Part shown: piece after piece, positions 19,442 through 60,505 of the stretch | How positions within the stretch are numbered: the stretch's first letter is position 1 | Layout: every line of letters begins with the position of its first letter | Origin: Pseudomonadota bacterium | GTDB taxonomy: Bacteria > Pseudomonadota > Alphaproteobacteria > Sphingomonadales > Sphingomonadaceae | NCBI GenBank assembly: GCA_040389985.1 | Contig: JAZJZH010000012.1 | Location: 35,027 to 99,026 of the forward strand | Direction: 5' to 3' | Length of the DNA: 64,000 bases | Notes under the pieces: model-generated | Databases searched by the model: none | What the model saw: only the letters and a program-made list of their open reading frames with translations | Told to the model about the DNA's origin: nothing | Made by a program: the position numbers and the translations under genes

Positions 19442-19506
19442 GATCTTTGCCTCTCCTGTCCGGCGGACTGTTGCCGTCCTTGACGGATTTGTCAGTATAG
19501 ATGTTA

Positions 19507-19551: not shown

Positions 19552-19604
19552 GAAAAGGATCATCACAAATTCAAGCCGAAACGAATCGGCGTGGGAGAGA
19601 GACA

Positions 19605-22082: not shown

Positions 22083-22119
22083 TCCCCGTCTTTCCGGGGC
22101 GTTTCACGCCCGTGGAAAT

Positions 22120-22161
22120 CATGGTCTTCGCCGGTGACTGCACGCACCGGCGAAGATCATG
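22120..22161 (+). other. 17-bp-stem RNA hairpin between the receptor and GH68 genes, burying ATG 22159
   Basis: CATGGTCTTCGCCGGTG (22120..22136), loop ACTGCACG, CACCGGCGAAGATCATG (22145..22161). There are 16 Watson-Crick pairs plus one G-U, and no U-tract follows. Confidence 0.6.
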
Positions 22162-36636: not shown

Positions 36637-36637
36637 G

Positions 36638-38060
<1,423 letters not shown>

Positions 38061-38068
<8 letters not shown>

Positions 38069-42564: not shown

Positions 42565-42574
42565 TGGAAAGACG

Positions 42575-43270: not shown

Positions 43271-43345
43271 TGCGCGCATTGCGGCAACAAGCCGTCGCCG
43301 GGATTGCATTTGCGGGCGGCGGCGTGCCCGCCTAGAGTCGGGGCC

Positions 43346-44362
43346 ATGACCGATCTCGACGCCTTCATCACTAGCCTGCCCAAGGCCGAACTCCATCTCC
43401 ATATCGAGGGTAGCCTGGAGCCGGAACTGATGTTCGCCCTCGCCCGGCGCAATGGCGTCGCCATCCCTTATGCGGATGTGGAAGCGGTGCGCGCTGCCTA
43501 TGCGTTCGGCAATTTGCAGGATTTCCTCGACATCTATTATGCCGGGGCGGACGTGCTGCGGACGCAGCAGGATTTCCACGACCTCGCCACCGCCTATTTC
43601 GATCGCGCCGCGGCCGACGGCGTTGCCCATGCCGAAATCATGTTCGACCCGCAGACCCACACAGCGCGCGGCATCCCCTTCGCCGCGGTGATCGAGGGGC
43701 TGTTGTCCGCTTGTGCCGAAGCGCAGGCGCGTCATGGCATGACCAGCCTGCTGATCCTGAGCTTCCTGCGCCACCTGAGCGAGAAGGACGCCGTTGCGAC
43801 GCTGGCGGAAGCCGAACCCTGGCTTGATCGGATCGGAGCGGTCGGACTCGATTCCTCGGAAATGGGCCACCCGCCCGAGAAATTCGCGCGCGTGTTCGCC
43901 ACGGCGCGGGAGAAGGGCCTCCGCCTGGTCGCCCACGCCGGGGAGGAAGGCCCGCCTGCCTATGTGATGCAAGCGCTCGATTTGCTGAAAGTTGACCGGA
44001 TCGACCATGGCAACCGCGCGCTGGAAGATGCTGCGCTCGTCGAACGGCTGGCGCGCGAAGGCATGACGCTGACCGTCTGCCCGCTTTCCAACCTCAAGCT
44101 CTGCGTGATTGATGCGATTGAAGATCATCCGATCGATCACATGCTGGCGCTGGGCCTGAAAGCGACCATCAACTCGGACGACCCCGCCTATTTCGGTGGC
44201 TATGTCGCGGACAATTATCGCGCGGTGGCGGGGGCACGCGGGCTGGACCGGGGTCAACTGGCGACATTGGCGCGCAACAGCTTTACCGGCTCGTTCCTGC
44301 CGGAGGAGGCCGTTGCCGCGCATCTGGCTCGGCTGGACGACTATCTGGCAGAACAGGCTTAA
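43346..44362 (+). CDS. adenosine/adenine deaminase family protein (cytosolic, ~338 aa)
   Basis: Motifs [31 protein letters not shown]. It is the last gene of the purine operon. Confidence 0.88.
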
Positions 44363-44407: not shown

Positions 44408-44986
44408 CTAAACATCACCGTCGCCCAGCCAATGTTCGGTCCGGGGCGGCAGATATTGGGCGATTCGATCAAGCATCAGTTCGGGATCGCGCTCGATCAG
44501 CAGCATGGCGCGATGGTCGGGCTTCAGGAACCCCTCCGCCACGACATGATCGATAAAGCCCGACATGCCGCTGTAGAAGCCGTTGACGTCCAGCATCCCC
44601 ACCGGCTTTTCATGATAGCCCAGTTGCGACCAGCACCAAGCCTCGAACATCTCTTCAAAGGTGCCGATGCCGCCGGGCAGCGTCACGAATCCATCCGCCA
44701 GCTTCGCCATCAGCGCCTTGCGCTCATGCATGGTCTGGACGACATGCAGTTCGCTGATCCCCTGATGGTCATGTTCGCGGGCGCGCAGCGCTTCGGGGAT
44801 GACGCCGATCACCTCGCCGCCCGCTGCGCAGGCTGCATCGGCGACCACGCCCATCAGGCCGACGGTGCCGCCGCCATAGACCAGGCCAATGCCGCGCTGT
44901 GCGAGCAGGGTGCCAAAGGCTTCTGCCGCCTCCCGATAGACCGGCAGCCGTCCCGGCGACGAACCGAGGAACACGCAGATTCGCAT
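44408..44986 (-). CDS. LOG-family (TIGR00730-type) nucleotide 5'-monophosphate nucleosidase / cytokinin riboside-5'-P phosphoribohydrolase-like
   Basis: Motifs VYGGGTVGLMG and the signature PGGIGTFEEMFE. 192 aa. Confidence 0.88.
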   Translation of the reverse strand: MRICVFLGSSPGRLPVYREAAEAFGTLLAQRGIGLVYGGGTVGLMGVVADAACAAGGEVIGVIPEALRAREHDHQGISELHVVQTMHERKALMAKLADGFVTLPGGIGTFEEMFEAWCWSQLGYHEKPVGMLDVNGFYSGMSGFIDHVVAEGFLKPDHRAMLLIERDPELMLDRIAQYLPPRTEHWLGDGDV

Positions 44987-45015: not shown

Positions 45016-45546
45016 TCAGGACAGGCGCTCAGGCACCGACAGCGCCTCCTCCACGATGTCGTCGCTGGCGCCGACCGATTCCCAAGGAAAGACGAACCAG
45101 CGCTTGTCGCTGTCGCGATCGATCATGCTCGCCCAATAATCGACCGTCTGGCGCGACCGGCTGTTGGACATCAGCACGGCGAAGCGCAGATTGCTGGCGT
45201 CGCAGCGATTGTCGGCCAGCAGGCGGCGGATATAGTCGATCGTGCCACCGCTGTCGTTGATGTCGTCCACGAACAGCAGTTTCACGCCAGCCGCGCTCTT
45301 GGCCGCGACCTTGCCCAGCAGTTCGTCGGCAAAGCCCGGCACCTTGCTGCTATGGTCGATCGAGAGCATCGGCAGTTTGAGCTGGTGCGAGATATAGACC
45401 GCCGGGACCAGTCCGCCGCGGCCGATGCCGATGATGAAGTCGGGCGTCCAGTCGTCCTCCCCCACTTGGCGCGCAACGGTCTGCACGTCGGCGAGGAAGG
45501 CGTCATAGCCGATGTAGAAAAGTTCGGGTTCAGCGGTGCTGCTCAT
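45016..45546 (-). CDS. type-I phosphoribosyltransferase (xanthine/guanine PRT-like)
   Basis: Inner part of ORF 45016..45960. PRPP loop LLFVDDINDSGGT. Also IIGIGRGGLVPA. I take the start at ATG 45546 (MSSTAEPELFYIGYDAF); ATG 45579 and 45585 are alternatives. Confidence 0.8.
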   Translation of the reverse strand: MSSTAEPELFYIGYDAFLADVQTVARQVGEDDWTPDFIIGIGRGGLVPAVYISHQLKLPMLSIDHSSKVPGFADELLGKVAAKSAAGVKLLFVDDINDSGGTIDYIRRLLADNRCDASNLRFAVLMSNSRSRQTVDYWASMIDRDSDKRWFVFPWESVGASDDIVEEALSVPERLS

Positions 45547-45632
45547 GAAAAGCGAATCCAGTTGGCCGGGAATGGACATGACCATGCCGATTATCCCGCC
45601 CGCGCCAAGGGGGCAATCGGCCGTAACGCGGA

Positions 45633-46565
45633 TCAGAGGTCGGCGCGCTCGATCGAGACGGGATAGCTCAGTTGCGCAAAGCCGCTCTCTATCTCGCCCA
45701 GCACGATCCCGGCGGCATAGGAAGGGGTGCGCGCCGCCGCGGTGCAAAGCGCCAGCGTCATCGGCCGTAGGATCGGATCGGAAATGCGGGTGAAGGAGAG
45801 GAGACCGCGCTGCACCTCCGTAATCACGTCGAGCGAGGTCAATATGCCGATGCCGACGCCCTGCATGACAAGGGAAATGAGCATCTGGATATTGTCGGAC
45901 GTGGCGGCGGGGTCGATCATGAGGCCGCTGGTCCCTTCCAGCACGGCGATCTGCTGACACACCGCCAGTGGTTCGGCCGGAACGATCAACGGCGATCCGG
46001 CGCAGGCAGAAAAACGCGCCTCGCGCTGCTCGCCGAAGGGGTGGCCGGCGGGCGTGAGGAAGCCTAGGACGACCTCGACAAAGGACCGCACGGTCAGGTC
46101 GCGATAGGATTGCGGTTCGAACACTATGCCGAAATCCGCTTCGCCGCTTGCGATGGCGTCGCGCACCCGGTCATTTTCCAACACGCGCACGCCGATGGTG
46201 ATGCCCGGATAGCGGCTCTGGATCGCGCGGATCGCGCCGGGGATATAGCCCTTCGCCAGCGCGTCAATGATGGCGATATCGACATGGCCGCGCTTGAGGC
46301 CGCGCAGATCCTCTATCTGCGCGCGCACGTCGGCCAGATTCTTCTGCCAGCGCCCGCCCGCCGCCATCATGATTTCGCCGGCCGCCGTCAGGCGCAAGCC
46401 CGTCGGCAATCGTTCGAACAGCGGCATCCCCAGGTCCGCCTCCACATTCAGAATCTGCCGGTCGATGGCCGACGCGGAGATATTGAGTTCATCCGCCGCC
46501 TTGCGGATCGACCCCAGTCGGCCGACCGCCATGAAGTAACGCAGAAAACGCGAAAATGCCGGCAT
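45633..46565 (-). CDS. LysR-family transcriptional regulator
   Basis: HTH FMAVGRLGSIRKAADELNISASAIDRQILNVEADLGMPLFERL plus a LysR substrate-binding domain. It is divergent from the nucleoside locus. Confidence 0.93.
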   Translation of the reverse strand: MPAFSRFLRYFMAVGRLGSIRKAADELNISASAIDRQILNVEADLGMPLFERLPTGLRLTAAGEIMMAAGGRWQKNLADVRAQIEDLRGLKRGHVDIAIIDALAKGYIPGAIRAIQSRYPGITIGVRVLENDRVRDAIASGEADFGIVFEPQSYRDLTVRSFVEVVLGFLTPAGHPFGEQREARFSACAGSPLIVPAEPLAVCQQIAVLEGTSGLMIDPAATSDNIQMLISLVMQGVGIGILTSLDVITEVQRGLLSFTRISDPILRPMTLALCTAAARTPSYAAGIVLGEIESGFAQLSYPVSIERADL

Positions 46566-46669
46566 GGACCCACCCTAATTTTTGCAACACTGCGTAGGAT
46601 TCATTGCGTTTGATCGCATCAGGTCAAGCCCCTACTCGCACCGCAGAGTGAAATAATGGGGATGCACGG

Positions 46670-47800
46670 GTGGTAGGGTCCGCAAGACAGGCGATGATGG
46701 CGATAGCCGCGACAGTCGCCGTGCTGGCCTATCCGTCGTTGGGCCGGGCCGCTGAACCGCCCGTTCCAGCGCTGCCGTCCGTCAAGCCGATACCGGTCAA
46801 GGTCATCGTCGTCGCCAATTTCGAGCCGGGCGCGGATATGGGCGATGTGCCTGGCGAGTTCCAGCTTTGGGCCGAGCGCGAAAAGCTGACCGAGGTGATC
46901 CCGATCAAGGGGGCGCTGCACCCGCTGCGTCGCAATGCGGACGGATTGTACGGCATGTGCTGGGGCAGCCCGGACACGATGCTGGGCGGGGTCGCCGAGC
47001 AGTTGATGAGCCTATTGCTCGATCCACGCTTCGATTTCAGCAAGACCTATTGGCTGTTTACCGGCATATCGGGCGTCGATCCGCAAATCGCATCGGTCGG
47101 CAGCGCCGCCTGGTCGCGCTGGGTGGTGCAGGGCGACACATTGCGGGAATTTGACGACCGCGAAGTGGGCAAGGACTGGCCCTATGGCCTGTTCGCGATC
47201 GGTGCCAACGCGCCCAACAAGCTGCCCCAGAATACTGAGAGCTTCGCTGGCTTCACCGATACCGGCAAGCTGACCATGTCGGTGAAGCTGAACCAGAGCT
47301 TGGCGCAATGGGCCTATGATCGCACCAAGGATGTGACCATTCCCGACAGCCCGGCGCTGCAAAAGGCGCGGGCAGCCTGGGCGGGCTATCCCAATGCGCA
47401 AAAGCCGCCTTTCGTGCTGATGGGCGAGACACTGGGGTCAGTCCGCTACTGGCATGGCCCCGGCCGCACCCAATGGGCGCGCGACTGGGTGAAGCTGTGG
47501 ACCGGCGGCAAGGGTCGTTTCGCCATGACCAACATGGAAAGCCAATCGCTGGCCGGTGCGATGGCGATCGCCGCGAAACAGGGGCTGGTCGATCCGGCGC
47601 GCGTACTGGTGCTGCGCACCGGCAGCAATCCGTCGATGCCGCCGCCGGGCCGATCGGCCGTCGAAAGCGTCGCCGATGAAGGCGCGGGCCAAGTCGCGGC
47701 GTTCGAAGCCAATTATCGCGTCGGCGTGCCGGTGGTGCATGAATTGCTGAGCCATTGGGATAGCTACAAGAATCATGTGCCGGGAACCGATCCGCAATGA
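46670..47800 (+). CDS. secreted NUP-family protein ('purine nucleoside permease' family, nucleoside-phosphorylase-like fold), copy 1
   Basis: Signal peptide ..MMAIAATVAVLAYPSLGRAAEP. Family blocks VIVVANFEPGADMGDVPGEFQLW, DPRFDFSKTYWLFTGISGVDP, GSAAWSRW, VLVLRTGSNPSMPPPG. No TM helices after the signal peptide. The start is GTG 46670 or ATG 46694. Confidence 0.8.
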   Translation: MVGSARQAMMAIAATVAVLAYPSLGRAAEPPVPALPSVKPIPVKVIVVANFEPGADMGDVPGEFQLWAEREKLTEVIPIKGALHPLRRNADGLYGMCWGSPDTMLGGVAEQLMSLLLDPRFDFSKTYWLFTGISGVDPQIASVGSAAWSRWVVQGDTLREFDDREVGKDWPYGLFAIGANAPNKLPQNTESFAGFTDTGKLTMSVKLNQSLAQWAYDRTKDVTIPDSPALQKARAAWAGYPNAQKPPFVLMGETLGSVRYWHGPGRTQWARDWVKLWTGGKGRFAMTNMESQSLAGAMAIAAKQGLVDPARVLVLRTGSNPSMPPPGRSAVESVADEGAGQVAAFEANYRVGVPVVHELLSHWDSYKNHVPGTDPQ

Positions 47801-49326
47801 AGCGCGGCCTGGCCCTCATGACCTCGCTCGCCGTGCTGTCGCCGGCAGCGGCGCAGACGACGAGCGGGGAAGCGGCCGCCGCCGCCCTGTTCGACCGGCT
47901 GGCGGACAGTCCGCCTGCGCAGCGGCTGTTCCTCAAGGCGATGCCCAAGGGCGGCGACCTGCACAATCATTTGGGTGGCACACCCTATGCGGAAGATTAT
48001 CTGCGCTGGGCGGCGCAGGCGGGCCTGTGCGTGGACGACAGCGGCACCCGCGTCGTCGCGCCGCCCTGCCCGGCAGCGCAGGCGGTCAAACATGTGGGCG
48101 AACAGACCCCTTTCGCCTTCGCCCGGCTGGTCGATGCCATGTCAACGCGCGGCGTGCAGCAGGGCGTGGGCGCGAATGACGCATCGGGCCATACGCAGTT
48201 TTTCGGCAGTTTCGACCGGTTCGGCCCGACTGGCCCGGCCGCGGACGCCGGCGCCTTGGTTGTTGCGCGGCAGGTCGCGGCGGGCGATCGGGTCGGCTAT
48301 CTGGAACTGATCCATAATCCTGACGCACTGATCGCGGCGACGCTGGGCGCGGCGGACGTAAAGCTGGACGCCAGCGGCCTGGCCGCCTTCTACCGCCGGA
48401 CGATCAAGGAAGCGAAGCCCGTCATCGATCGGGCGATTGCGGAACTGGATGCGAACGAGGCCGCGGCGGGCAAGGCGCTGGCCTGTCGCGGCGCGAACGC
48501 CGATCCTGGCTGCGGCGTTGCGATCCGCTATCTCGCCTGGGGCTGGCGCGATCTGCCTCCCGCGCAGGCCTTCACTTCGTTGATCCTCGCCTTCGCGCTG
48601 GCCGATCGCGATCCGCGCTATGTCGGCATCAACATCGTCCAGCCGGAAGATTGGGTGATCGCGCTGCGCGACTATGACCTTCACATGGCGATGCTCCGCT
48701 TTCTGGCGGAACGGCACCCCCGCGTGCATCGCACCCTGCACGCGGGCGAACTGGCGTTCGGCCTGGTGCCGCCCGCCGCCCTGCGCGACCATATCGCCAA
48801 GGCGCTGGACGCCGGCGCGGAACGGATCGGCCATGGCACCGCCATCGCTTACGAGGACGACGCCATCGCCACGCTGGCGCGGATGGCGCGCGACGATGTC
48901 GCGGTGGAAATCAACCTGACCAGCAATGCGGTGATATTGGGGGTGAAGGGCGACGATCACCCGCTGCGCCTCTATCGCCGGGCGGGCGTTGCGACGCTGC
49001 TATCGACCGACGATCAGGGCATATTGCGGACTGACATGACCCAGGAATATCTGCGCGCCGCGCGCGAACAGGGCATGGGCTATGCGGATCTCAAGCAGAT
49101 GGCGCGCACCAGCCTGGAGCAGGCGTTCGTCGACGGGGCCAGCATTTGGGCGGACAGGCATGTTGGCACACGCGCCCCGCCCTGCGCCGCGGGCTGGACC
49201 GACGATCGCTGTCGCAGTCTCGCACGATCCAGTTCCAAGGCCGCACTTCAAATCCAATTGGAGGAAGATTTCGATATTTTCGAAGATGTTACCGTTGCCA
49301 ACCTGCATAGATCGATCGGGCCGTAG
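47797..49326 (+). CDS. secreted long-form adenosine deaminase (ADGF/ADA2-like)
   Basis: Signal peptide MKRGLALMTSLAVLSPAAAQ. Metal motifs KGGDLHNHLGG, LHAGE, LSTDDQG. 509 aa, versus about 335 for cytosolic forms. ATGA overlap with NUP copy 1. Confidence 0.8.
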   Translation: MKRGLALMTSLAVLSPAAAQTTSGEAAAAALFDRLADSPPAQRLFLKAMPKGGDLHNHLGGTPYAEDYLRWAAQAGLCVDDSGTRVVAPPCPAAQAVKHVGEQTPFAFARLVDAMSTRGVQQGVGANDASGHTQFFGSFDRFGPTGPAADAGALVVARQVAAGDRVGYLELIHNPDALIAATLGAADVKLDASGLAAFYRRTIKEAKPVIDRAIAELDANEAAAGKALACRGANADPGCGVAIRYLAWGWRDLPPAQAFTSLILAFALADRDPRYVGINIVQPEDWVIALRDYDLHMAMLRFLAERHPRVHRTLHAGELAFGLVPPAALRDHIAKALDAGAERIGHGTAIAYEDDAIATLARMARDDVAVEINLTSNAVILGVKGDDHPLRLYRRAGVATLLSTDDQGILRTDMTQEYLRAAREQGMGYADLKQMARTSLEQAFVDGASIWADRHVGTRAPPCAAGWTDDRCRSLARSSSKAALQIQLEEDFDIFEDVTVANLHRSIGP

Positions 49327-49377
49327 CGAGCCTACCGATCACTGGCAGAAGAACGATAAAAAATAAGACATTTTCTT

Positions 49378-49419
49378 TGCTGCGCCGCGTCAAGACTATT
49401 AGCATGACGCATTGCAGCA
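49378..49419. promoter_or_regulatory. composite palindrome TGCTGC-gcc-GCGTCA-N12-TGACGC-att-GCAGCA upstream of the receptor gene
   Basis: Read directly in the AT-rich 188-bp leader, followed by the A/T tract TCAAAAAATTTTATAGG (a possible -10 region). It could be a dyad operator or an RNA hairpin. Confidence 0.35.
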
Positions 49420-49514
49420 TCAAAAAATTTTATAGGAGAGGCAGACAGCAGGGACAACCGGCTGGCGAAGCCGTGGGGATTTACGCTTCGTCGCCATTAT
49501 AAAGGGGGCTCAAC

Positions 49515-52025
49515 ATGGCGCATTATCTGCCTTTTCATCGTTCTAATATTCATGCTGCGCGGCAACATCGTTCGCGACCTGGATCGACCGCCATCGCCAC
49601 GCTGGCGTTGCTGTCCTGCACCGCCCTAAGTCCTGGGCTGAGTTCCGCCGCCTGGGCGCAGACTCCCGCGCCGGAGGATGCGCCGGAGCCGACCGCTGAA
49701 ATCGTGGTGACGGGCGCGCTCGATGCGTTGCCGATTAAAAATGTCGGTTCCATCTTTGGCTTCGACAAGACGATCCTCGAAACCCCGCGCTCCGCATCGA
49801 CCATCAGCAGCGAGCAGATGGAGCGGTTCGGCATCACCGACATTTATGACCTGGTCGCGCAGGCGCCCGGCACCTTCACCAACAGTTTCTTCGGCGTAGG
49901 CGGCGCGCTCGACATTCGCGGCACGCCCGGCGAAGTCTATTTTCGCGGCATGCGCCGCCTGGATAATCCGGGCAACTATCCCACGCCCATCGGCGCATCG
50001 GACCGCATCGACATCGTCCGCGGCCCCGCATCGCCGATTTTCGGCCCGTCCAAGACCGGCGGCTACATGAATTTCGTGCCGAAGTCGGCGCGCGTTGCCG
50101 ACGGCAAGTTGCGCGACAAGGCGAGTGGCGAAATCAGCTATACCCGCGGTAGCTGGGACATGAACGTCGTCAAGGGCAATGTCTCCGGCCCGCTCAAGAT
50201 CGGCGAGCAGGAATTCGGCTACAGCCTGTTCGGCCAATATGAGGATGACGGCAGCTATTATCGCAACATGTCGACCAAGCAGACCATCCTGCAAGGCTCC
50301 TTCGACACCGACCTGTCGGACCATGTCCGCATCGAATTTGGCGGCCAATATCAGAACTATAAGGGTCAGCAAAATGGCGGCTGGAACCGCCTGACCCAGG
50401 CGCTGGTCGATGACGGCACCTATATCACCGGCCAGGCGCAGCCGCTGGATACCAGCGGCGACGGGCAGATTTCGCAGCAGGAAATCAAGGCTTCGGTGCC
50501 CGGCGGATTCTCGATTTTCGGCAACTTCTCCTGCCCCAACAGCACGTTCAGCCCCTTTGCCAGCGGCTTTACCGACGCCTGCTTCACGTCGACCTATCCC
50601 AGCTTGGCGCTGACCAATACCGGCACGACAAAGCTCAGCCGCCGCGATGTGCTGACCGGAAAGGACGACCGTTTGGTCAACCGGGGTTCGACCTTCTACT
50701 TCGACGCTATCTATACGGCCGACAGCGGTTTCGAGTTGAAGAACCAGTGGTTCTACGACAGCTATGAAAATATGAACGAGAACGCCTATGGCTTCTCGCA
50801 ATTCCATGACAGCTGGGTGATCGAGGACAAGATTGTCGCGTCCAAGACGCTGGAAAGCAGCGCGGGCAAATTCTCCTTCCAGCTGTCGCCGTCGGTCCGC
50901 TACACCAAGTTCGCGCATGGCGACGACTTCAATTATGAATATTTCCACCGCGTCGACCTGACGGTGGGCTATGATGCGTTGTCGGACCGCCTGCTGTCGA
51001 CCGAATGCGACTGCGACTACACCAATTATGTCGTCGGTCATTATAGCGACCTGGCGCTGGCGGGGCTGGTCGATCTCGACTTCGCTTTCGGCCTGGATGT
51101 GACGCTGGGTGCGCGCTACGACCATCTGGACGTCAAGGCGACCAACATCACGTCGAAGATGGAAGCGCCCGCCGTCGGCCTGGCGGCGAATAACGCCAGC
51201 GGCAGCAAGGGCGCCTGGTCCTGGTCGGGCAGCGCATCCTACAAGCTGCCCTTCGGCCTGATCCCCTATGGCACCATCGCCAAGCAATCGACGGTGATTG
51301 CGGGTCAGGGCGCGGAAATCTATCCGGCCGATGTCGCCGGCGGCACTTTCCTCTCCGCCTCCAAACTTTATGAAGGTGGGATCAAGGGCAGTTGGCTCGA
51401 CAACAAGCTCTATGCGGCCGTGTCGGTTTACAAGCAGAAGCGCACCGACTTTAACATCCAGTCGATCACGGTGAACCAGTCGGTCGAAACCAAGGGGCTG
51501 GAGGCGGAATTCCGCTGGTCGGTTGATCGTCACCTACTCATTACCGGCGCCTACACCCACACCAATGTCTATAATCTGACCGCGTTGCAGGACGGCAGCC
51601 TGTTCAGCTTCTTTGGCATCGAGGATCTGGTGAACGTGTCCGATCCGACCCTCTATCTGGGCGGCCAGCCGATCGGGTTGGTGCCGATCAACAGCAAGAA
51701 CGATTCCAAGCGCGCGGGTATTCCTGAAAATATGTATTCGGCCACCGCAACCTATGCGTTCGACTTCGGCCTCGCTTTGTCGGGCAGCCTGGTGCATGTC
51801 GAGTCGGTCTATTCGGGCCAAAGCCAGGCAGTGAAGCTACCGGCCTATACCACCGTGGACCTGGGCGTATCGTTCGAAACCGGACCGATGCTGTTGCGCC
51901 TGGTGGTGAAGAACGCGACCAACGAGAAATATTTCCGCGCCAACTTCACCGAATTGTTCGGCAGCACCATCGTCCTGCCGGAACGGCCGCGCAGCTTCCA
52001 GGCGTCCGCCGTCTATAAATTCTGA
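49515..52025 (+). CDS. TonB-dependent receptor (nucleoside-locus associated)
   Basis: AAGGGGG RBS. Long signal region ..TLALLSCTALSPGLSSAAWAQ. Plug AEIVVTGALD..ILETPRSASTISSEQMERFGITDIYDLV..DIRG..IDIVRGPASPIFG. C-terminal ..SAVYKF. Confidence 0.92.
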   Translation: MAHYLPFHRSNIHAARQHRSRPGSTAIATLALLSCTALSPGLSSAAWAQTPAPEDAPEPTAEIVVTGALDALPIKNVGSIFGFDKTILETPRSASTISSEQMERFGITDIYDLVAQAPGTFTNSFFGVGGALDIRGTPGEVYFRGMRRLDNPGNYPTPIGASDRIDIVRGPASPIFGPSKTGGYMNFVPKSARVADGKLRDKASGEISYTRGSWDMNVVKGNVSGPLKIGEQEFGYSLFGQYEDDGSYYRNMSTKQTILQGSFDTDLSDHVRIEFGGQYQNYKGQQNGGWNRLTQALVDDGTYITGQAQPLDTSGDGQISQQEIKASVPGGFSIFGNFSCPNSTFSPFASGFTDACFTSTYPSLALTNTGTTKLSRRDVLTGKDDRLVNRGSTFYFDAIYTADSGFELKNQWFYDSYENMNENAYGFSQFHDSWVIEDKIVASKTLESSAGKFSFQLSPSVRYTKFAHGDDFNYEYFHRVDLTVGYDALSDRLLSTECDCDYTNYVVGHYSDLALAGLVDLDFAFGLDVTLGARYDHLDVKATNITSKMEAPAVGLAANNASGSKGAWSWSGSASYKLPFGLIPYGTIAKQSTVIAGQGAEIYPADVAGGTFLSASKLYEGGIKGSWLDNKLYAAVSVYKQKRTDFNIQSITVNQSVETKGLEAEFRWSVDRHLLITGAYTHTNVYNLTALQDGSLFSFFGIEDLVNVSDPTLYLGGQPIGLVPINSKNDSKRAGIPENMYSATATYAFDFGLALSGSLVHVESVYSGQSQAVKLPAYTTVDLGVSFETGPMLLRLVVKNATNEKYFRANFTELFGSTIVLPERPRSFQASAVYKF

Positions 52026-52032
52026 TCTGTTT

Positions 52033-52069
52033 CGGGGAGCGCAGCATCTCTGTGCTCCCCGTCCCTTTT
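52033..52069 (+). terminator. rho-independent terminator after the receptor gene
   Basis: CGGGGAGC (52033..52040) / GCTCCCCG (52054..52061), followed by TCCCTTTTA. Confidence 0.55.
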
Positions 52070-52088
52070 ACCGGAAGGCCCTGCGCCG

Positions 52089-53198
52089 ATGCCATTTGCT
52101 GCCCGCCGCCTGATTGGGACTGTCTGGGCCTGCCTTGCCCTGTTTGGGGTCGGGACCGCCGGGGCCGCGTCACCAGCGGTCGATGCCGTTCTTGCCTGTG
52201 TGCCCGGCAAGCCGTGCGCCACGAGCCTGCCCGTCCGCATGGTCATCGTCACCATGTTCGAAATCGGCGCGGATGAGGGCGATGCGCCCGGCGAGTTCCA
52301 GTTGTGGAAGGAAAGGCGGCAGCTCAATGTCCGCATCCCCTTCACCCAATCCTGGCACGACCTCTATTACAACCCAGACACCCAGATATTGGCGATGGTG
52401 ACCGGCGTCGGCACCGCGCGGTCCGCCACCGCGACCATGGCGTTGGGCCTCGACCCACGCTTCGACCTGTCCAAAGCTTATTGGCTGGTCGCAGGCATTG
52501 CCGGCATCGACCCGCAGGATGCATCAATCGGATCGGCTGCCTGGGCGCGCTACAGCGTCGACGGCGATCTGGTCCATGAAATTGACGCACGCGAAATACC
52601 CAAAGGCTGGGCATCGGGCTTCTTCGCGCTCGACCGCAAGGGACCGGACGACCTCAATCCGCCTGATACCGATGGCCGGACCTTCGCCATGAACCCCAAG
52701 CTGGTCGACTGGGCCTATGCCCTGACCAAAGATACGCCCCTACCCGACGATCCGGGCGTGGCGGCGGCGCGTGCAGCCTATAAGGGCTATCCCAATGCCC
52801 AGCGCCCGCCCTTCGTCCTGATCGGCGACCAATTGTCGGCCATGACCTTCTGGCACGGCAAGCTGATGAACGACTGGGCCAATGACTGGGTCAAGCGCGC
52901 CACCCAGGGCAAGGGCGAGTTCGTCACCTCCGCCATGGAAGAAACCGGTACGTTCCAGGCGCTGACCTATCTCGACAAAGTCGGACGGGCGGACAAGCAG
53001 CGGGTCATGCTGTTGCGATCGGGCAGCAACTATTCCATGCCGCCGCCCGGCGTGACCGCAGCCGACAATCTACTGCGTGAAAATGAAGGCTATTCCGGCA
53101 TGCGGGCATCGCTCGAAAGCCTGTATCTGGTCGGATCGAAAGTCGTGGACGAATTGCTGGATCATTGGGACCGCTACGAGCAGGCGCCGCCGCAATGA
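52089..53198 (+). CDS. secreted NUP-family protein, copy 2
   Basis: Signal peptide MPFAARRLIGTVWACLALFGVGTAGAAS. Same family blocks as copy 1 (VIVTMFEIGADEGDAPGEFQLW, DPRFDLSKAYWLVAGIAGIDP, GSAAWARY, VMLLRSGSNYSMPPPG). Confidence 0.85.
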   Translation: MPFAARRLIGTVWACLALFGVGTAGAASPAVDAVLACVPGKPCATSLPVRMVIVTMFEIGADEGDAPGEFQLWKERRQLNVRIPFTQSWHDLYYNPDTQILAMVTGVGTARSATATMALGLDPRFDLSKAYWLVAGIAGIDPQDASIGSAAWARYSVDGDLVHEIDAREIPKGWASGFFALDRKGPDDLNPPDTDGRTFAMNPKLVDWAYALTKDTPLPDDPGVAAARAAYKGYPNAQRPPFVLIGDQLSAMTFWHGKLMNDWANDWVKRATQGKGEFVTSAMEETGTFQALTYLDKVGRADKQRVMLLRSGSNYSMPPPGVTAADNLLRENEGYSGMRASLESLYLVGSKVVDELLDHWDRYEQAPPQ

Positions 53199-54586
53199 CC
53201 GCAGCACCGTTCGCCATCCCGCAGGCTGCGCCTGAGCAACCGACGGGAATGACGGCGGCGCAAGCGCGCGATCCCGATCACTTCCCCGGCCTGGCCATCG
53301 CCATCACGCTGGGCATCCAGCATGTGCTGGCCATGTTCGTCAGCAACATCACGCCCGCCATCATCATCGCGGGCGCCGCCGGGTTCGGCTATGGATCGGC
53401 GGACCCCGGCGCGCTCATCTACATGATCCAGATGGCGATGTTGTTCGCCGGCCTGACCACCCTGCTTCAGACGGTAGGCGTGGGACCGGTGGGTGCGCGC
53501 CTGCCCCTGGTGCAGGGCACCAGCTTTGCCTTTCTCCCGGTCATCATCCCGATCTGCGCCGGGCGCGGGGTGGACGCCATGGCGGAACTGACCGCTGCGG
53601 CGCTGTGCGGCGGGCTGTTCCATGCGGTATTGAGCATGTTTGTCGGCCGTATCCGCTTCGCCTTGCCGCCGCTGGTCACGGGCTTGGTCGTGCTGATGAT
53701 CGCCCTGTCGCTGATGCGGGTCGGCATCCAATATGCCGCCGGCGGGGTCATGGCGCAGGGAACGCCGGCCTATGGCGCGGGGGCTGGCTGGCTGCTGGCG
53801 GGCGTGGTCATCGTCACGACGCTGGGGCTCAGCTTTTTCGCGCGAGGGCTGTGGTCCACCGCGTCTGTGCTGCTGGGACTGCTGGCGGGCTATGCCCTCG
53901 CCGCCGCCATGGGCCGGGTGTCGCTGGCCCCGATTGGCGCCGCGCCTGTCGTTATGCTGCCCGACCCGTTCCATTTCGGCTTCGCCCTGTCCGCGTCCGC
54001 CATATTGGGCTTCTGCCTGATGGGCTTCATCTCCGCGATCGAATCGATCGCCGACGTGTCGGCCATCTGCGAAGCCAATGTCGGTCGGCGGGCACGCGAC
54101 AGCGAATTGATCGGCGCAACGGCCGCCGATGGCGTCGGGACCGCGATCGGAGCGCTGTTCGGGGCCATGCCCAATACGAGCTTCAGCCAGAATGTAGGAT
54201 TGATCGCCATTACCGGCATCGTCAGCCGCCATGTCGTGACGGTCGGCGCGCTGTTTCTGGTCCTGTGCGGATTGGTGCCCAAGATCGGCGCGGCCATCAC
54301 CACCATTCCGATCGAGGTGCTGGGCGGCGGGGTCATTTTGATGTTCGGCATGGTCGCGTCGGCCGCCCTGTCCATGCTGTCGGCGGTCGCATGGACGCAG
54401 CGCAACATGTTAATCTTCGGCCTCGCCTTGTCACTGGGCATCGGGCTGGAGCTTGAACCCGATGCGCTGTCGCATGTGCCCACGTCCGCGCGCATCATTC
54501 TGGCGTCCGGCGTGCTGCCGGCTGCCCTGATCGCCGTCATACTCAACCTGATCGTGCCGGGCCGCACGCCTCTGCGGCAGAACTGA
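53195..54586 (+). CDS. NCS2 nucleobase:cation symporter (xanthine/uracil/urate permease type)
   Basis: ATG 53195 overlaps the NUP stop (ATGA). Motif ITLGIQHVLAMFVSNITPAIII. About 13 TM helices. Confidence 0.88.
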   Translation: MTAAPFAIPQAAPEQPTGMTAAQARDPDHFPGLAIAITLGIQHVLAMFVSNITPAIIIAGAAGFGYGSADPGALIYMIQMAMLFAGLTTLLQTVGVGPVGARLPLVQGTSFAFLPVIIPICAGRGVDAMAELTAAALCGGLFHAVLSMFVGRIRFALPPLVTGLVVLMIALSLMRVGIQYAAGGVMAQGTPAYGAGAGWLLAGVVIVTTLGLSFFARGLWSTASVLLGLLAGYALAAAMGRVSLAPIGAAPVVMLPDPFHFGFALSASAILGFCLMGFISAIESIADVSAICEANVGRRARDSELIGATAADGVGTAIGALFGAMPNTSFSQNVGLIAITGIVSRHVVTVGALFLVLCGLVPKIGAAITTIPIEVLGGGVILMFGMVASAALSMLSAVAWTQRNMLIFGLALSLGIGLELEPDALSHVPTSARIILASGVLPAALIAVILNLIVPGRTPLRQN

Positions 54587-54593
54587 CCCTGCG

Positions 54594-55628
54594 CTATCCG
54601 GCCGTGCTCCGCCGCACGACCAGCCTGGTGCCCAGCGTGCAGGGCGGCAGCGGCCGATCCTCCACCTGCGCGACCAGCGTATCGACCAACAATTGCCCGG
54701 CCCCCTTCATGTCCTGCATGATGGTGGTCAGCGGCGGCGTGGTCAGGCTGGCGGCCGGTATATCGTCGAAGCCTATAATGGCGACGTCGCCCGGAACGGA
54801 CAGGCCCGCCTCCGCCAGCGCGCGCATCGCGCCGATTGCGATCAGGTCGCTCGCCGCAAAGATGGCGTCGAAGGGCTTGGCCCGCGCAATCAGGGTTCGG
54901 GCCGCGGTATGGCCGGCATCCTCGGCCGTCAGCGCATCTACCTGCAACGCGGGGTCAAGGGCAACGCCGACCGCTGCCATCGCCTGGCACAGGCCGCGAT
55001 AGCGATCGGCAAATTCGGGATAATGTTCGTCCGCCTGACCTAGAAAGGCGATGCGACGGCGGCCGATACTGAGCAGATGCTCGCCGGCCAGGCGGCCCGC
55101 CCCGACATTGTCCGATCCCACGGTCGGCCCGATCGTGTCCTCCCCCGCCGACCCCCAGCGGACGAAATGCGTGCCATGATCAACCAGTTCGGTCAGTCGC
55201 CGGGCGTAGAGCGTATAGTCGCCATAGCCGAGCAGGATGAGGCCGTCGGCGCGGTGACTGTCCTGGTAACGGACATGCCAGTCATACTCCATCTTCTGGA
55301 AGGAAATGAGCAGGTCCAGTCCGCGCACGCCGCATTGCCGGGTGATCGATCCCAGCATGGCCAGGAAGAAGGGATTGATGTTGGATTCATCGGGGGTGGG
55401 ATCTTCGAAGAACAGCAGCGCGATGGTGTTCGATCGTTGCGACCGGAGCGAGGACGCATTTTTATCGACCGAATAGTTGAGTTCGCGCGCGATCGCCTCG
55501 ATCCGCTGGCGCGTGGCCAGGCTGACCGATCGCGATCCGCGCAGCGCGCGGCTGACAGTTGGCTGCGACACGCCCGCCAGATAGGCGATGTCGAAGCTCG
55601 TCGGCTTGCTGCTGGGCTGGCGCCCCAT
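54594..55628 (-). CDS. LacI-family transcriptional regulator (maltodextrin locus)
   Basis: HTH TSFDIAYLAGVSQPTVSRALRG. Sugar-binding core ..IIGFDDIPAASLTTPPLTTIMQD. Confidence 0.93.
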   Translation of the reverse strand: MGRQPSSKPTSFDIAYLAGVSQPTVSRALRGSRSVSLATRQRIEAIARELNYSVDKNASSLRSQRSNTIALLFFEDPTPDESNINPFFLAMLGSITRQCGVRGLDLLISFQKMEYDWHVRYQDSHRADGLILLGYGDYTLYARRLTELVDHGTHFVRWGSAGEDTIGPTVGSDNVGAGRLAGEHLLSIGRRRIAFLGQADEHYPEFADRYRGLCQAMAAVGVALDPALQVDALTAEDAGHTAARTLIARAKPFDAIFAASDLIAIGAMRALAEAGLSVPGDVAIIGFDDIPAASLTTPPLTTIMQDMKGAGQLLVDTLVAQVEDRPLPPCTLGTRLVVRRSTAG

Positions 55629-55758
55629 CTCTCTCCTCCCGGCGCGTTGGATGCGCCACAGCCATGCTAGGGATCATCCCAAAACAAGGCAATTGCGCCC
55701 TGGGCGATCACGTCCCCCGTTGCATAGCAGCCACAGGCCGTGGCCATGCATAATATGC

Positions 55759-55770
55759 GCATACGTATGC
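55759..55770. promoter_or_regulatory. perfect 12-bp palindrome GCATACGTATGC (candidate LacI operator)
   Basis: Central-CG palindrome in the 277-bp divergent region between LacI and the TonB receptor. It is embedded in ATGCATAATATGCGCATACGTATGC, which also contains the palindrome ATGCGCAT. Confidence 0.5.
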
Positions 55771-55905
55771 CTGCTGGCGGGGCGAGGCGAGCGGGGCGTA
55801 AGAGGCCTCATCCGCAGGAACGTGGCGCTGCACAGCCACGCCTGCGGCCAGGGTTCCAGCACCGGCGAACAGGGTCTGCCGGTGTCCATGGGGGAGAGGA
55901 TAAAA

Positions 55906-58587
55906 GTGGCTCATCATCATAACCGCGTCCGTTTGTTCGGCGCATCGCTTCTGGCCATTATGGCGACCGCCGGTCCAGCCTTCGCGCAGGACCCGCCGCA
56001 GGATGCGGCCGGTGACACAATCGTCGTCACCGGCTTTCGCGCCGCGCTCCAAAGCGCCGTCAACGTAAAGAAGAACGCCGCGCAGATCGTGGAATCGGTG
56101 TCCGCCGAGGATATCGGCCGGTTGCCCGACGCATCGATCGGCGAGTCCATAGCCCGCCTTCCCGGCCTGACGTCGCAGCGCCTGTTCGGCCGCGCCAATT
56201 CGATCGCGATCCGCGGCGCCAGCGCCGACCTCTCCTCCACCACGCTCAATGGCCGTCCGCAGACGTCGACCGGCGAACAGCGCAATGTCGAGTTCGACCA
56301 GTATCCCTCCGAAGTCGTGAGCCGCGTGGACGTGTTCAAGTCGCCGCAGGCCAACCTCATCAACCAGGGCCTCGCCGGCACCGTCGATATCCGCACCATC
56401 CGCCCGCTCGACTATGGCAAAGAACTGTTCTCGGTCGGCGCGCGCGGCGTCTATACCGACCTGGGCAAGGTCAATGCCGACAGCAAGGACAAGGGCTATC
56501 GCCTGACCGGCACCTATGTCGGCCAGTTCGCGGGCGACCGCATCGGCGTGTCGCTGTCCGCCGCCTATAATGACGAACCCTATCAGTCGAAGGAGTTCGA
56601 AGCCTGGGGCTATGCCGACGGGCCGAACGGCGACAAGGTCATCGGCGGGATCAAGCCGTTCGGCGTTTCGACGCAGTTGAAGCGCCTGGGCATCCAGGGC
56701 GCAGTGCAGGTGCAGGCGACCGACACGCTGCTGCTGACCTTCGATGGCTTTTATGGCGATTTCAAGGAAAAGCAGATCAAGCGCGGCGTCGAATTTCCGC
56801 TCTACTGGAGCGGCGCGACGCTGGTGCCCGCCAGCATCGGCACCGACGGCGATTTCATCAACAAGGGCACCTTCACCGGGGTCGAGGCGGTGGTCAACAA
56901 CCATGGTTATGAGCGCAAGTCGACCATTGTTTCGGGCGGCTTCAACGGCAAATATACCGGCGACGATGGCTGGTCGACCAGTTTCGATTTCGGCTATTCG
57001 CGCACCGACCGCAGCGAATTGTCGCTCGAATCCAATGCGGGCACCGGCTATGGTCCCGGCAATGGCGCCACCGACACGCTGGATTTCGTGAGCGGGGCCA
57101 AGGGCACGCGCTTTACCTCCAGCCTGCTCGACTATAGCGATCCCAATCTGATGGTGCTGACCGACCCGCTGGGTTGGGGTGCCGGCGCGCCGCTGGGCCA
57201 TCAGGAGGGCTATTATAACAACCGCATAATCGATGATGAGATCAAGAGCTACCAGTTGGAGTTCGGCAAGGAGATCGAGGGCGGCTTCCTGTCGAAGATC
57301 ACGGCGGGGCTGGGCTATGTCGACCGGACCAAGGCGAAGACGCCGGAAGAATATGTGCTGAACCTGGCCAATGGCGCGACGTCGCTGGTGCTGCCGGAAC
57401 AATATCGCCTGGCCGCGACCGACCTGAGCTTTATCGGCATAGGCCCGATCCTGTCCTACGACCCGTTCAAGCTGCTGGCCGACGGCGTCTATATCAAGAC
57501 GCTCAATCCCAGCAAGGACGTGCCGGCCAAGGCCTATTCGGTGACCGAGCGGGTGATGTCCGCCTATCTGATGGCCAATATCAAATCGGACGTTGGATCG
57601 GCGGAACTGACCGGCAATATCGGCGTACTCGCGCAGAATACCGAACAGAAGTCGCGCGGTTTCGTCAACCTGGCGGCGGCCGACCTGGTGCCCACGACGC
57701 GCGGCGACAATTATTGGGACGTGCTGCCCAGCATGAACATGTCGCTGCGCTTTCCCAGCGACTTCATCGTCCGCCTGGCGGCCGCGCGCGAAATCCAGCG
57801 CCCCCGGTTCGAGGATATGAAGGTCAGCCTGGATTATGGCTACAACACCGCCAGCGGCGTCATCACCGGCACCGGCGGCAATCCCACGCTGCGCCCCTAT
57901 CGCGCCTGGGCGGCGGACCTGAATTTCGAGAAATATTTCGGGACCAAGGGCTATGTCAGCCTGCAACTCTTCGCCAAGAAGCTGCAAAGCTATGTCTATC
58001 GCAAAACCGAAGCGTTCGATTATAGCGGCCTGCCGGTGGTCCTGCCGCCAGGCGTCGTCGATCCCGCCGGCACGATCACCCGGCCGGTCAATGGCAAAGG
58101 CGGCAAGCTATACGGCTTCGAAGTCGCTGGCACGGTGCCGTTCGACATCGTGACGCCCGCGCTGCAGGGCTTTGGCCTGACGGGCGGCGTGGGCTATACC
58201 AAGACCAGCATCAAACCGGGCGTGGGCGCGGCGGCCGAAGACCTGCCCGACTATTCGCGCTGGGTCGCCAACGGCACGTTGTTCTTCGAAAAATGGGGCT
58301 TCAACGCGCGTGGTTCGGTGCGCTACCGCTCGTCCTTCGTCGGCCAGTTCGTCGGTTTTGGCGGTGAACGGGAATTGCGTAGGGCCTTGAGCGAAACCAT
58401 CGTCGACGCGCAGGTCGGCTATGATTTCCAGAAGGGCAGCGCATTGGATGGCCTGTCGATCTTCGTCCAGGGCCAGAATCTGACCGACGAACCGTTCGTA
58501 TCGGTCGATACCGGCGCGTCGATCCAGGTCCGCAACTATCAAAGCTATGGCCGCCGTTTCATGGCGGGCTTCAACTACCGCTTCTGA
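55906..58587 (+). CDS. TonB-dependent receptor (MalA-like carbohydrate type)
   Basis: Inner part of ORF 55588..58587. GTG 55906 is preceded by GGAGAGGA (ATG 55888 is the alternative). Signal peptide (M)AHHHNRVRLFGASLLAIMATAGPAFAQ. Plug TIVVTGFRAALQSAVNVKKNAAQIVESVSAEDIGRLPDASIGESIARLPG. C-terminal ..GFNYRF. Confidence 0.92.
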   Translation: MAHHHNRVRLFGASLLAIMATAGPAFAQDPPQDAAGDTIVVTGFRAALQSAVNVKKNAAQIVESVSAEDIGRLPDASIGESIARLPGLTSQRLFGRANSIAIRGASADLSSTTLNGRPQTSTGEQRNVEFDQYPSEVVSRVDVFKSPQANLINQGLAGTVDIRTIRPLDYGKELFSVGARGVYTDLGKVNADSKDKGYRLTGTYVGQFAGDRIGVSLSAAYNDEPYQSKEFEAWGYADGPNGDKVIGGIKPFGVSTQLKRLGIQGAVQVQATDTLLLTFDGFYGDFKEKQIKRGVEFPLYWSGATLVPASIGTDGDFINKGTFTGVEAVVNNHGYERKSTIVSGGFNGKYTGDDGWSTSFDFGYSRTDRSELSLESNAGTGYGPGNGATDTLDFVSGAKGTRFTSSLLDYSDPNLMVLTDPLGWGAGAPLGHQEGYYNNRIIDDEIKSYQLEFGKEIEGGFLSKITAGLGYVDRTKAKTPEEYVLNLANGATSLVLPEQYRLAATDLSFIGIGPILSYDPFKLLADGVYIKTLNPSKDVPAKAYSVTERVMSAYLMANIKSDVGSAELTGNIGVLAQNTEQKSRGFVNLAAADLVPTTRGDNYWDVLPSMNMSLRFPSDFIVRLAAAREIQRPRFEDMKVSLDYGYNTASGVITGTGGNPTLRPYRAWAADLNFEKYFGTKGYVSLQLFAKKLQSYVYRKTEAFDYSGLPVVLPPGVVDPAGTITRPVNGKGGKLYGFEVAGTVPFDIVTPALQGFGLTGGVGYTKTSIKPGVGAAAEDLPDYSRWVANGTLFFEKWGFNARGSVRYRSSFVGQFVGFGGERELRRALSETIVDAQVGYDFQKGSALDGLSIFVQGQNLTDEPFVSVDTGASIQVRNYQSYGRRFMAGFNYRF

Positions 58588-58597
58588 TGTGTAGAGT

Positions 58598-58631
58598 GGC
58601 CCGGCGGCCTTGTCGTCGCCGGGCCTTTTTT
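58598..58631 (+). terminator. rho-independent terminator
   Basis: GGCCCGGCG (58598..58606) / CGCCGGGCC (58617..58625), followed by TTTTTT (58626..58631), 11 nt after the receptor stop. Confidence 0.8.
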
Positions 58632-58658
58632 CAAGGTTCAAGTAAAGGGGTGCCCGTG

Positions 58659-60488: not shown

Positions 60489-60505
60489 CCGCCGGAACGC
60501 CCCCT

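Follow-up and report, generated by a model that had tools for sequence, protein, structure and literature searches.

TonB-dependent transporters are known for the uptake of iron complexes, cobalamin, metals, glycans and a few aromatics. The carbohydrate 'CUT' loci of Xanthomonas and Caulobacter (SuxA for sucrose, MalA for maltodextrin, NagA for N-acetylglucosamine; PMC1790865) combine a receptor of this kind with a regulator, periplasmic degradative enzymes and an inner-membrane transporter, and serve receptor-rich bacteria in scavenging a scarce small nutrient. Here we describe a locus that is alike in composition and, as we propose, in purpose, found in a 64,000-nucleotide stretch of a Sphingomonadaceae genome (GenBank assembly GCA_040389985.1, contig JAZJZH010000012.1, positions 35,027 to 99,026 of the forward strand; hereafter the window). 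All four elements that define a CUT locus, namely a receptor, an inner-membrane transporter, degradative enzymes and a regulator in one cluster, are present and syntenic. Whereas the CUT loci handle carbohydrates with glycoside hydrolases, the predicted substrates here are purine nucleosides, the enzymes are a deaminase and proteins of a nucleosidase fold, and the regulator is of the LysR type. Because these enzymes are not carbohydrate-active, we regard the locus as an analog of the CUT loci rather than a strict member, and it may represent their proteobacterial nucleoside counterpart.

In Bacteroides, the rus (10.1101/574913) and ddbABCDEF (PMC12478041) loci target ribose or DNA by means of SusC/SusD, surface lipoprotein enzymes, an IUNH-type nucleoside hydrolase or nucleases, and ribokinases. 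The locus in the window differs from these in that it has no SusD-like partner, employs the NUP fold and an ADA2-like deaminase, and would feed a nucleobase permease and xanthine dehydrogenase. Among the genes adjoining the receptor, all of which were identified, none is SusD-like, which sets the locus apart from the polysaccharide utilization loci (PUL) of Bacteroidota. Escherichia coli has a dedicated passage for nucleosides across the outer membrane in Tsx (cited in PMC11658791), yet Tsx is a small passive channel with neither plug nor TonB box, and the nucleosides then enter the cell intact via NupC/NupG, whereas here uptake would be energized and the nucleoside would be dismantled in the periplasm. 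A precedent for a sphingomonad TonB-dependent receptor that serves the catabolism of a small molecule, neither iron nor glycan, is DdvT of Sphingobium sp. SYK-6 (PMC6874591); its substrate, a lignin-derived biaryl, was shown experimentally, while the role of the receptor described here is predicted.

We propose, with a probability of roughly 60%, that the genes make up a LysR-controlled, TonB-dependent locus for the utilization of purine nucleosides. In this scheme, which draws on gene context and predicted structures, the receptor would import scarce adenosine, inosine, guanosine or xanthosine, and possibly the 5'-phosphates, across the outer membrane with energy from TonB/ExbBD. A periplasmic ADA2/ADGF-like deaminase would convert adenosine, or adenosine monophosphate (AMP), to the 6-oxo form, and soluble periplasmic NUP proteins would capture the nucleoside and most probably cleave its N-ribosidic bond to yield the free base. 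The NCS2 symporter would then take the 6-oxopurine base into the cell, where guanine deaminase, xanthine dehydrogenase, hydroxyisourate hydrolase, a putative urate monooxygenase and the products of allantoin-pathway genes would degrade it for nitrogen. Since the locus holds no inner-membrane nucleoside transporter, cleavage to the base would be expected to take place in the periplasm, and the lack of ribose genes points to nitrogen scavenging. The data show directly the domain content, the export signals (by a heuristic), the folds (as predictions), the conserved catalytic residues of the deaminase and a gene linkage that withstands rearrangement; from these we infer what the receptor carries, that the NUP proteins are catalytic, in which order the steps follow and that the LysR protein is the regulator. 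The features concerned, together with the purine genes around them, are collected in the table.

Table. Coordinates of the proposed nucleoside locus and of neighboring purine genes in the window
Feature	Position	Strand	Basis
Second purine module	26873-31969		
Second NCS2 permease	26873-28240		
Exported MTA/SAH-nucleosidase-like protein, keeps S-D motif	28252-29154		TIGR01704, above cut-off
FAD-dependent oxidoreductase	34892-36310		
Adjacent cytoplasmic purine catabolism block, hydroxyisourate hydrolase to adenosine deaminase	36307-44362	+	
Hydroxyisourate hydrolase	36307-36636	+	
xdhA, xdhB, xdhC	36560-41287	+	
Guanine deaminase	41284-42564	+	
Cytoplasmic adenosine deaminase	ends 44362	+	
LOG/TIGR00730 nucleotide phosphoribohydrolase-like gene	44408-44986	-	TIGR00730, 198 bits, above cut-off
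Xanthine-phosphoribosyltransferase-like gene	45016-45564	-	weak match, 49 bits (cut-off 138)
LysR-type transcriptional regulator, divergent	45633-46565	-	Pfam HTH_1 and LysR_substrate
Conserved box aaTTTTTGCAACactgcgtaggATTCATTGCgTTTGAtcgcat in LysR/NUP1 intergenic region, candidate operator	46577-46619	.	
NUP-family protein 1 (NUP1)	46670-47800	+	PF06516, 320.6 bits (cut-off 27)
Long adenosine-deaminase-like protein, 509 aa, exported, ADA2/ADGF-like	47797-49326	+	PF00962
Receptor leader, 188 nt	49327-49514	+	read from sequence
TonB-dependent outer-membrane receptor, 836 aa	49515-52025	+	Plug domain
GC-rich 12-bp hairpin just 3' of receptor stop codon	52033-52061	+	
NUP-family protein 2 (NUP2)	52089-53198	+	PF06516, 376.6 bits (cut-off 27)
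NCS2 nucleobase:cation symporter, xanthine-permease-like, inner membrane	53195-54586	+	PF00860, TIGR00801

The genes, their coordinates and the divergent LysR gene had been laid out in an initial annotation made from the sequence alone, and the list of open reading frames together with Pfam and NCBIfam searches bears this layout out. Its reading of the locus as a system for purine-nucleoside utilization finds support in gene context and in the predicted structures. The coupling that it had proposed between NUP1 and the deaminase and between NUP2 and the NCS2 gene is seen directly in the sequence as ATGA overlaps at 47797 and 53195, and the nonamer CCGCAATGA is identical at both junctions (47793-47801 and 53191-53199). 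The start codon of NUP1 is either the GTG at 46670 or the ATG at 46694, and the NCS2 reading frame opens at 53165, its likely start being the ATG given in the table. Signal peptides had been ascribed to NUP1, the deaminase and NUP2; using a heuristic on N-terminal features, we find that these three and the receptor all begin with signal-peptide-like sequences, in which a positive n-region, hydrophobic core and A-x-A site can be recognized. Identity to Sphingobium psychrophilum AR-3-1 is 99% for the receptor and 91-99% for its neighbors. Long antisense reading frames within the receptor gene (49626-51533, minus strand) and the NCS2 gene (53174-54232, minus strand) are without family support and were set aside as high-GC artifacts.

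The receptor has a plug domain (PF07715, residues 88-183, 50.8 bits, cut-off 23.9), a TonB-box-like EIVVTG at residues 62-67 and a C-terminus ending in VYKF, the last two judged by eye against the usual motif; I63, V65, T66, G67 and F836 are invariant among 16 orthologs. The barrel model PF00593 stays below threshold in the window protein and is precomputed for many orthologs, and TIGR01785 and TIGR01783 align over residues 527-836. In public databases these orthologs are named 'TonB-dependent siderophore receptor' or 'iron complex outermembrane receptor protein', and an ordinary siderophore or metal receptor with purine genes as incidental neighbors would suit those names, as well as the fact that the siderophore model TIGR01783 is the best NCBIfam match and that CntO, FoxA, FauA and Fiu are among the best PDB sequence matches. 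However, TIGR01783 gives 136.6 bits where 223.5 are required, and the PDB alignments do not extend beyond the plug region. A scan for regulator sites, which covered Fur only, gave a best match to the Fur box of 11/19 in the receptor leader and at most 12/19 across 76 leaders, the window's included, which is the level of shuffled sequence. Moreover, none of about 160 neighborhoods contains iron-uptake genes, whereas purine genes are linked to the receptor in nearly all of them and in many arrangements. As neither a Fur box nor iron genes were found, the name 'siderophore receptor' is probably wrong for these orthologs; a siderophore or metal receptor is strongly disfavored and, in our view, extremely improbable. 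Gene context instead supports a receptor dedicated to purine processing.

Conservation of gene order in other sphingomonads had been named as a check on the proposal. Using an alignment of 16 orthologs, we retrieved 80 genome loci with receptors 66-99% identical, from Sphingobium, Novosphingobium, Sphingomonas, Croceicoccus and one Phenylobacterium, and scored the window proteins in them by tblastn. The core of the arrangement is kept: of 75 informative loci, 72 have a NUP gene immediately after the receptor gene, and 72 have a LysR gene upstream on the opposite strand, within 4 kb of the receptor. The gene for the long deaminase immediately precedes that of the receptor in 44 of the 75; counted at any position, it is present in 50 of the 65 full loci. 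The NCS2 permease is found within 5.5 kb downstream in 51 of 68. NUP1 precedes the receptor in only 17 of 75. An ortholog of guanine deaminase occurs upstream of the receptor in 46 of the 65 full loci and xdh in 32.

Most other genomes also carry an extra amidohydrolase between NUP2 and NCS2, at about 13.6-15.0 kb in locus coordinates (L008, L011-L015, L017, L020, L023, L026 and others). This protein has about 30% identity to guanine deaminase and is similar to 8-oxoguanine deaminase; the window lacks it, NUP2 and NCS2 being in direct overlap there. A role for it as a periplasmic guanine deaminase was rejected, there being no signal peptide. One further locus, L067, is a 3.7-kb contig of a Vicinamibacterales metagenome-assembled genome (DATMJU010000499.1) binned as Acidobacteriota, with a receptor 66% identical; its upstream sequence matches the Novosphingobium locus L065, and the contig is probably mis-binned.

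Since shared ancestry could explain synteny among sphingomonads, a wider search was made. Searching 1.84 billion cluster representatives, we found distant receptors of 58% identity and below. The relative at 58% has the order NUP-deaminase-receptor-NUP, and one at 41% has receptor-deaminase-PNP_UDP_1-NUP, with ExbB/ExbD/TonB, gamma-glutamyltranspeptidase and M20 genes upstream, while in another, at 39%, a TetR gene, the receptor and a long deaminase stand together. Further relatives lie amid amidohydrolases, creatininase, isochorismatase and ABC/Bmp transport genes (40%, L089), next to GTP cyclohydrolase I (46%, L084), or without an obvious link (43%), and the wider clade may be specialized in N-heterocycles. 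Seeding a scan of metagenomes with the distant receptors yielded 80 loci with receptors 46-54% identical to the window's, of which 55 contain a NUP gene, 38 a long deaminase and 39 an NCS2 gene. Where at least 3 kb was available on both sides (n=30), a NUP gene lay within 3.5 kb in 23 loci, and NUP, deaminase or NCS2 in 26. These metagenome loci show at least 14 gene orders or orientations, and the GC content of the contigs spans 39-67%.

A further phylum is represented, with the same set of parts, by Verrucomicrobia bacterium DG1235 (L092), whose receptor is about 26% identical to the window's over two aligned blocks and has the motif GWNR.TQ.LVD.G.Y in common with it. There the receptor stands with adenine deaminase, adenosine deaminase and NCS2 genes, and a tandem NUP-NUP fusion (643 aa, L092 8001-9932), a PhoD gene and TonB/ExbBD are nearby; the PhoD gene hints at a nucleotide-to-nucleoside step in that lineage. 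When linkage persists through so much rearrangement and divergence, this is a good indication that the genes are functionally coupled, and, judged from these neighborhoods, the association of the receptor with purine genes is not a matter of chance.

Although PF06516 carries the name 'purine nucleoside permease', its two members in the locus, which are 48% identical to each other, have no hydrophobic 19-mer besides the signal peptide, compared to 12 in the NCS2 protein. A membrane permease was accordingly rejected for NUP, as there are no membrane helices and the model is a globular alpha/beta fold. The AlphaFold model of NUP2 has a mean predicted local distance difference test (pLDDT) score of 84, and its top Foldseek matches are methylthioadenosine/S-adenosylhomocysteine (MTA/SAH) nucleosidases, including the periplasmic Aeromonas enzyme MtaN (5b7q), futalosine hydrolase, AMP nucleosidase and purine nucleoside phosphorylase, with a probability of 1.00, an E value of about 5e-10 and a target-normalized TM-score of about 0.7; a sequence search of the PDB with NUP2 gave no match. 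From its model, NUP is a soluble exported member of an N-ribosyl-cleaving fold, and the family name is probably a misnomer. Among the enzymes of this fold, MTA/SAH nucleosidase (MtnN) is the best match to NUP2 and the Aeromonas protein provides a periplasmic precedent, yet identity is 10-15%, and NUP is about 130 residues longer, with insertions, and has a conserved CxPGxPC motif after the signal peptide. In an alignment by MAFFT and a low-confidence hhalign run (E 0.005), NUP residues M283-E284 align with the ribose-binding M-E motif of the MTA/SAH-nucleosidase-like protein encoded elsewhere in the window, and S313-N314 aligns with its S-D motif, so that NUP has an Asn at the place of the general-acid Asp. 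Across 22 NUP sequences, neither E284 nor N314 varies.

The NUP protein of Candida albicans, from which PF06516 takes its name, confers the use of external adenosine and guanosine, but has been described as a transporter, whereas the bacterial members examined here have a nucleosidase fold and no membrane helices beyond the signal peptide. The Candida protein lets adenine-auxotrophic yeast use adenosine and brings no sensitivity to toyocamycin (PMC9431476), which would fit an extracellular nucleosidase feeding a yeast base permease.

The long deaminase keeps H56, H58, H315, E318, H346, D405 and D406 in all of 24 orthologs; these lie in the motifs HxH, HAGE, GHG and TDD, which we take to be the metal and catalytic sites of adenosine deaminase. 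The same orthologs share three conserved Cys pairs (78/91, 230/239 and 463/472), and all have signal-peptide-like N-termini. The AlphaFold model (pLDDT 88) finds its best PDB folds in the Helix pomatia AMP deaminase, human ADA2 and a chimeric ADGF, with a TM-score of about 0.6 to ADGF/ADA2 structures, and classical adenosine deaminases come next. Like ADA2/ADGF (human, 3lgd; Helix pomatia, 9nte), the protein is exported, about 500 residues long and has extra helical parts around the barrel as well as Cys pairs. Unlike them, it misses the ADGF model TIGR01431 (26 bits, cut-off 315), its role would be nutritional, and ADA2/ADGF has been described as an animal family (10.1101/2023.05.16.541053). 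The 509-residue protein is probably an active periplasmic adenosine deaminase, for which AMP is also a possible substrate. With Foldseek scoring ADA2 and the AMP deaminase almost alike, specificity for adenosine or AMP is not readable from the fold.

The NCS2 protein, with about 12 hydrophobic segments, passes the cut-off of TIGR00801 (303.1 bits, cut-off 291.8). The surrounding region is a supercluster of purine catabolism genes. According to the initial annotation the locus lies 2 kb from the xdh/purine operon, which holds for the distance of about 2.3 kb between the cytoplasmic adenosine deaminase gene and NUP1, but xdhABC and the guanine deaminase gene are further upstream, and three genes intervene.

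Several points weigh against the proposed scheme. The first concerns catalysis by NUP, which might bind nucleosides without cleaving them, by analogy with a mutant enzyme, because an invariant Asn replaces the general-acid Asp. The Asp197Asn mutant of MTA/SAH nucleosidase is a substrate trap. In PDB entry 1z5o, this mutant of the E. coli enzyme holds intact methylthioadenosine. A reading built on this would have the receptor import poorly soluble free bases (xanthine, guanine, hypoxanthine or urate) and the NUP proteins act as non-catalytic binding proteins that hand the base or nucleoside to NCS2. It would fit with a nucleobase symporter as the sole inner-membrane carrier, with a neighborhood devoted entirely to the degradation of bases, and with the 15 of 65 full genome loci in which the receptor-NUP-NCS2 core occurs without the long deaminase. 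We nevertheless consider the import of free bases quite unlikely. An exported deaminase would be senseless for free bases, and it is linked to the receptor in the majority of the full genome loci and in 38 of the 80 metagenome loci. The fold of NUP and the M-E motif that it retains belong to enzymes that cleave N-ribosyl bonds, and the same purine region encodes an exported MTA/SAH-nucleosidase-like protein in which S-D is kept. Mammalian purine nucleoside phosphorylase has an Asn at the equivalent position, which it uses for 6-oxopurine nucleosides, and the Asn in NUP therefore does not imply inactivity. If NUP were likewise an enzyme for 6-oxopurine nucleosides, this would explain why a deaminase is co-exported.

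A second point is that nucleotides could be the substrates, as the fold matches nearest to the deaminase model are an AMP-preferring ADGF enzyme (9nte/9ntg) and an ADGF whose crystals held pentostatin monophosphate. The locus could then serve the salvage of nucleic acids or modified purines, its substrates being nucleotides, short oligonucleotides or modified adenosines such as N6-substituted ones, cytokinin ribosides and products derived from NAD or RNA. The PhoD phosphatase/phosphodiesterase gene in the verrucomicrobial locus and the LOG/TIGR00730 nucleotide phosphoribohydrolase-like gene adjoining the LysR gene are in line with this, and TonB transport is as a rule kept for molecules whose size or scarcity makes porins inadequate (PMC11658791). 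Neither the sphingomonad locus nor most of the metagenome versions, however, contain a nuclease, 5'-nucleotidase or phosphodiesterase gene; the N-termini of the LOG and phosphoribosyltransferase proteins, read by eye, have no signal peptide, and the near-equality of the Foldseek scores for ADA2 and AMP deaminase takes weight from the structural match. We regard salvage of nucleotides or modified purines as unlikely. The initial annotation had likewise allowed for nucleotides or oligonucleotides as substrates, and for binding in place of base release by the NUP proteins.

The remaining points touch the scheme at other steps. Nucleosides are of a size to pass porins, and the need for an energized receptor is argued from lifestyle. 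The receptor orthologs of Sphingomonas naphthae and S. oleivorans (72-73% identical) stand alone, with no purine genes. The locus is without a ribose transporter or a ribokinase. Finally, the NCS2 protein scores just under the cut-off of the pbuX model TIGR03173 (387.5 bits, cut-off 414.15), and xanthine is a candidate specificity.

With regard to expression, the receptor was said to have its own AT-rich leader and a terminator. The leader is indeed poorer in GC than its surroundings in the window (56% compared to roughly 64%), but this AT-richness is not conserved across other genera. It holds an upstream GCAT...CATTGCAGCAT box, a local hairpin and, at 49435-49441, about 80 nt before the receptor start, a GGAGAGG box which is Shine-Dalgarno-like and has no start codon after it; the true Shine-Dalgarno sequence of the receptor is AGGGGG at 49503-49508. 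Of 76 leaders, counting that of the window, 55 carry a box of the GGAGAGG type 60-95 nt ahead of the start codon; they come from three genera and include those of stand-alone receptors. The window's other two receptor genes (55892 and 19593) have GGGAGAGG or GGGAGAGA as their actual Shine-Dalgarno sequence, and since they use the octamer in this way, the box in the leader is a Shine-Dalgarno-like sequence that lacks a start codon. One possibility is that ribosomes use it as a standby site, another that it serves regulation. A riboswitch or conserved RNA structure in the leader found no support: an Rfam cmscan of 45500-55700 with E up to 1 revealed no RNA family, and with it no riboswitch suggestive of a different ligand, and a MAFFT alignment of 38 leaders gave zero consensus pairs with RNAalifold. 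Folding single leader sequences places a hairpin before the Shine-Dalgarno site, variable in place and sequence.

The hairpin downstream of the receptor is where it had been claimed, and its position is conserved while its sequence is not: folds of -30 kcal/mol or lower occur there in 83% of orthologous loci compared to 9% of control windows. Terminator-like matches overall were at the level of shuffled sequence, and this hairpin alone is supported, by its conservation. The T-run is weak and read-through into NUP2 is plausible, which leaves the hairpin a candidate terminator, attenuator or stabilizer; the pattern suggests high expression of the receptor with attenuated read-through into NUP2-NCS2. 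A sigma-70 promoter scan found no match in either intergenic region. The LysR gene product reaches the cut-off of no NCBIfam equivalog. A TTTTTTGCAAC...ATTCATTGCATTTGA box adjoins the LysR start codon in Sphingobium, Sphingomonas and Phenylobacterium loci, whatever gene comes first on the opposite side, and would be a binding site of the LysR protein. Within the window the CATTGCR half-site is not enriched (22 found, 40 expected).

Turning to the genes around the locus, the LOG and phosphoribosyltransferase genes between the cytoplasmic adenosine deaminase and LysR genes had gone unmentioned in the initial annotation. The second purine module further upstream contains, besides its NCS2 and nucleosidase-like genes, a gamma-glutamyltranspeptidase and an M20 hydrolase, and a class-V aminotransferase and a PuuE-like deacetylase are also listed for it. 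The gamma-glutamyltranspeptidase and M20 pair adjoins distant receptor-deaminase-NUP clusters as well, M20 in 9 of the 80 metagenome loci and gamma-glutamyltranspeptidase in 5, and genes of the second module or this pair also occur in L087 (3614-14152), L103, L116, L128, L133, L142 and L146. Elsewhere in the window, a LacI gene, a receptor of the Xanthomonas/Caulobacter type and two alpha-amylases (54594-62113) form a separate locus, probably for maltodextrin, and a receptor with a GH68 levansucrase/invertase and a ROK kinase (19440-24206) is probably for sucrose or fructan.

In a review from 2024 of the substrates of TonB-dependent transporters, nucleosides come up solely in connection with Tsx, the passive channel (PMC11658791). 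The link between receptors and purine genes has not gone wholly unnoticed, because a review of sphingomonad receptors from 2020 filed two receptors of Sphingobium fuliginis under 'Nucleotide transport and metabolism' on gene context alone (PMC7142613). The statement in the initial annotation that no nucleoside-specific receptor has been characterized holds for Proteobacteria in the literature searched, which includes few subscription journals and so makes this weak evidence; it does not extend to Bacteroides, where SusC-type loci for ribose or nucleosides and for DNA are known. The searched literature likewise gave no periplasmic bacterial ADA2-like enzyme and no biochemistry of a bacterial NUP (PF06516), an absence that is again weak evidence, and the main text of a fitness-data preprint does not mention the locus.

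What appears to be new here, by comparison with the CUT loci and PUL, is a receptor locus of their style with a new class of substrate and new families of enzymes. In its most far-reaching form, the proposal would hold jointly that this is the first energized outer-membrane importer of purine nucleosides in Proteobacteria, that PF06516 comprises secreted or periplasmic enzymes cleaving 6-oxopurine nucleosides with an Asn active site that explains the exported ADA2-like deaminase, and that receptor, NUP, deaminase and NCS2 form a widespread, unrecognized route to purine nitrogen in soil, freshwater and marine bacteria. We put this joint claim forward tentatively, at somewhat less than even odds.

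If the scheme is true, a clade of nucleoside-specific receptors would add a substrate class to the TonB-dependent transporters, and a widespread mis-annotation as 'siderophore receptor' would be corrected. The Pfam family NUP would change from 'permease' to a soluble, exported, nucleosidase-like family, with the Candida data to be reinterpreted, and the secreted deaminases of the ADA2/ADGF type would have bacterial counterparts with a nutritional role. Sphingomonads are genetically tractable, which makes the model directly testable. The locus is probably an uncharacterized route of purine-nucleoside scavenging that recurs in many soil and marine bacteria. As the module is present in many sphingomonads and in marine and soil metagenomes over a wide range of GC content, it could matter for the turnover of dissolved organic nitrogen.

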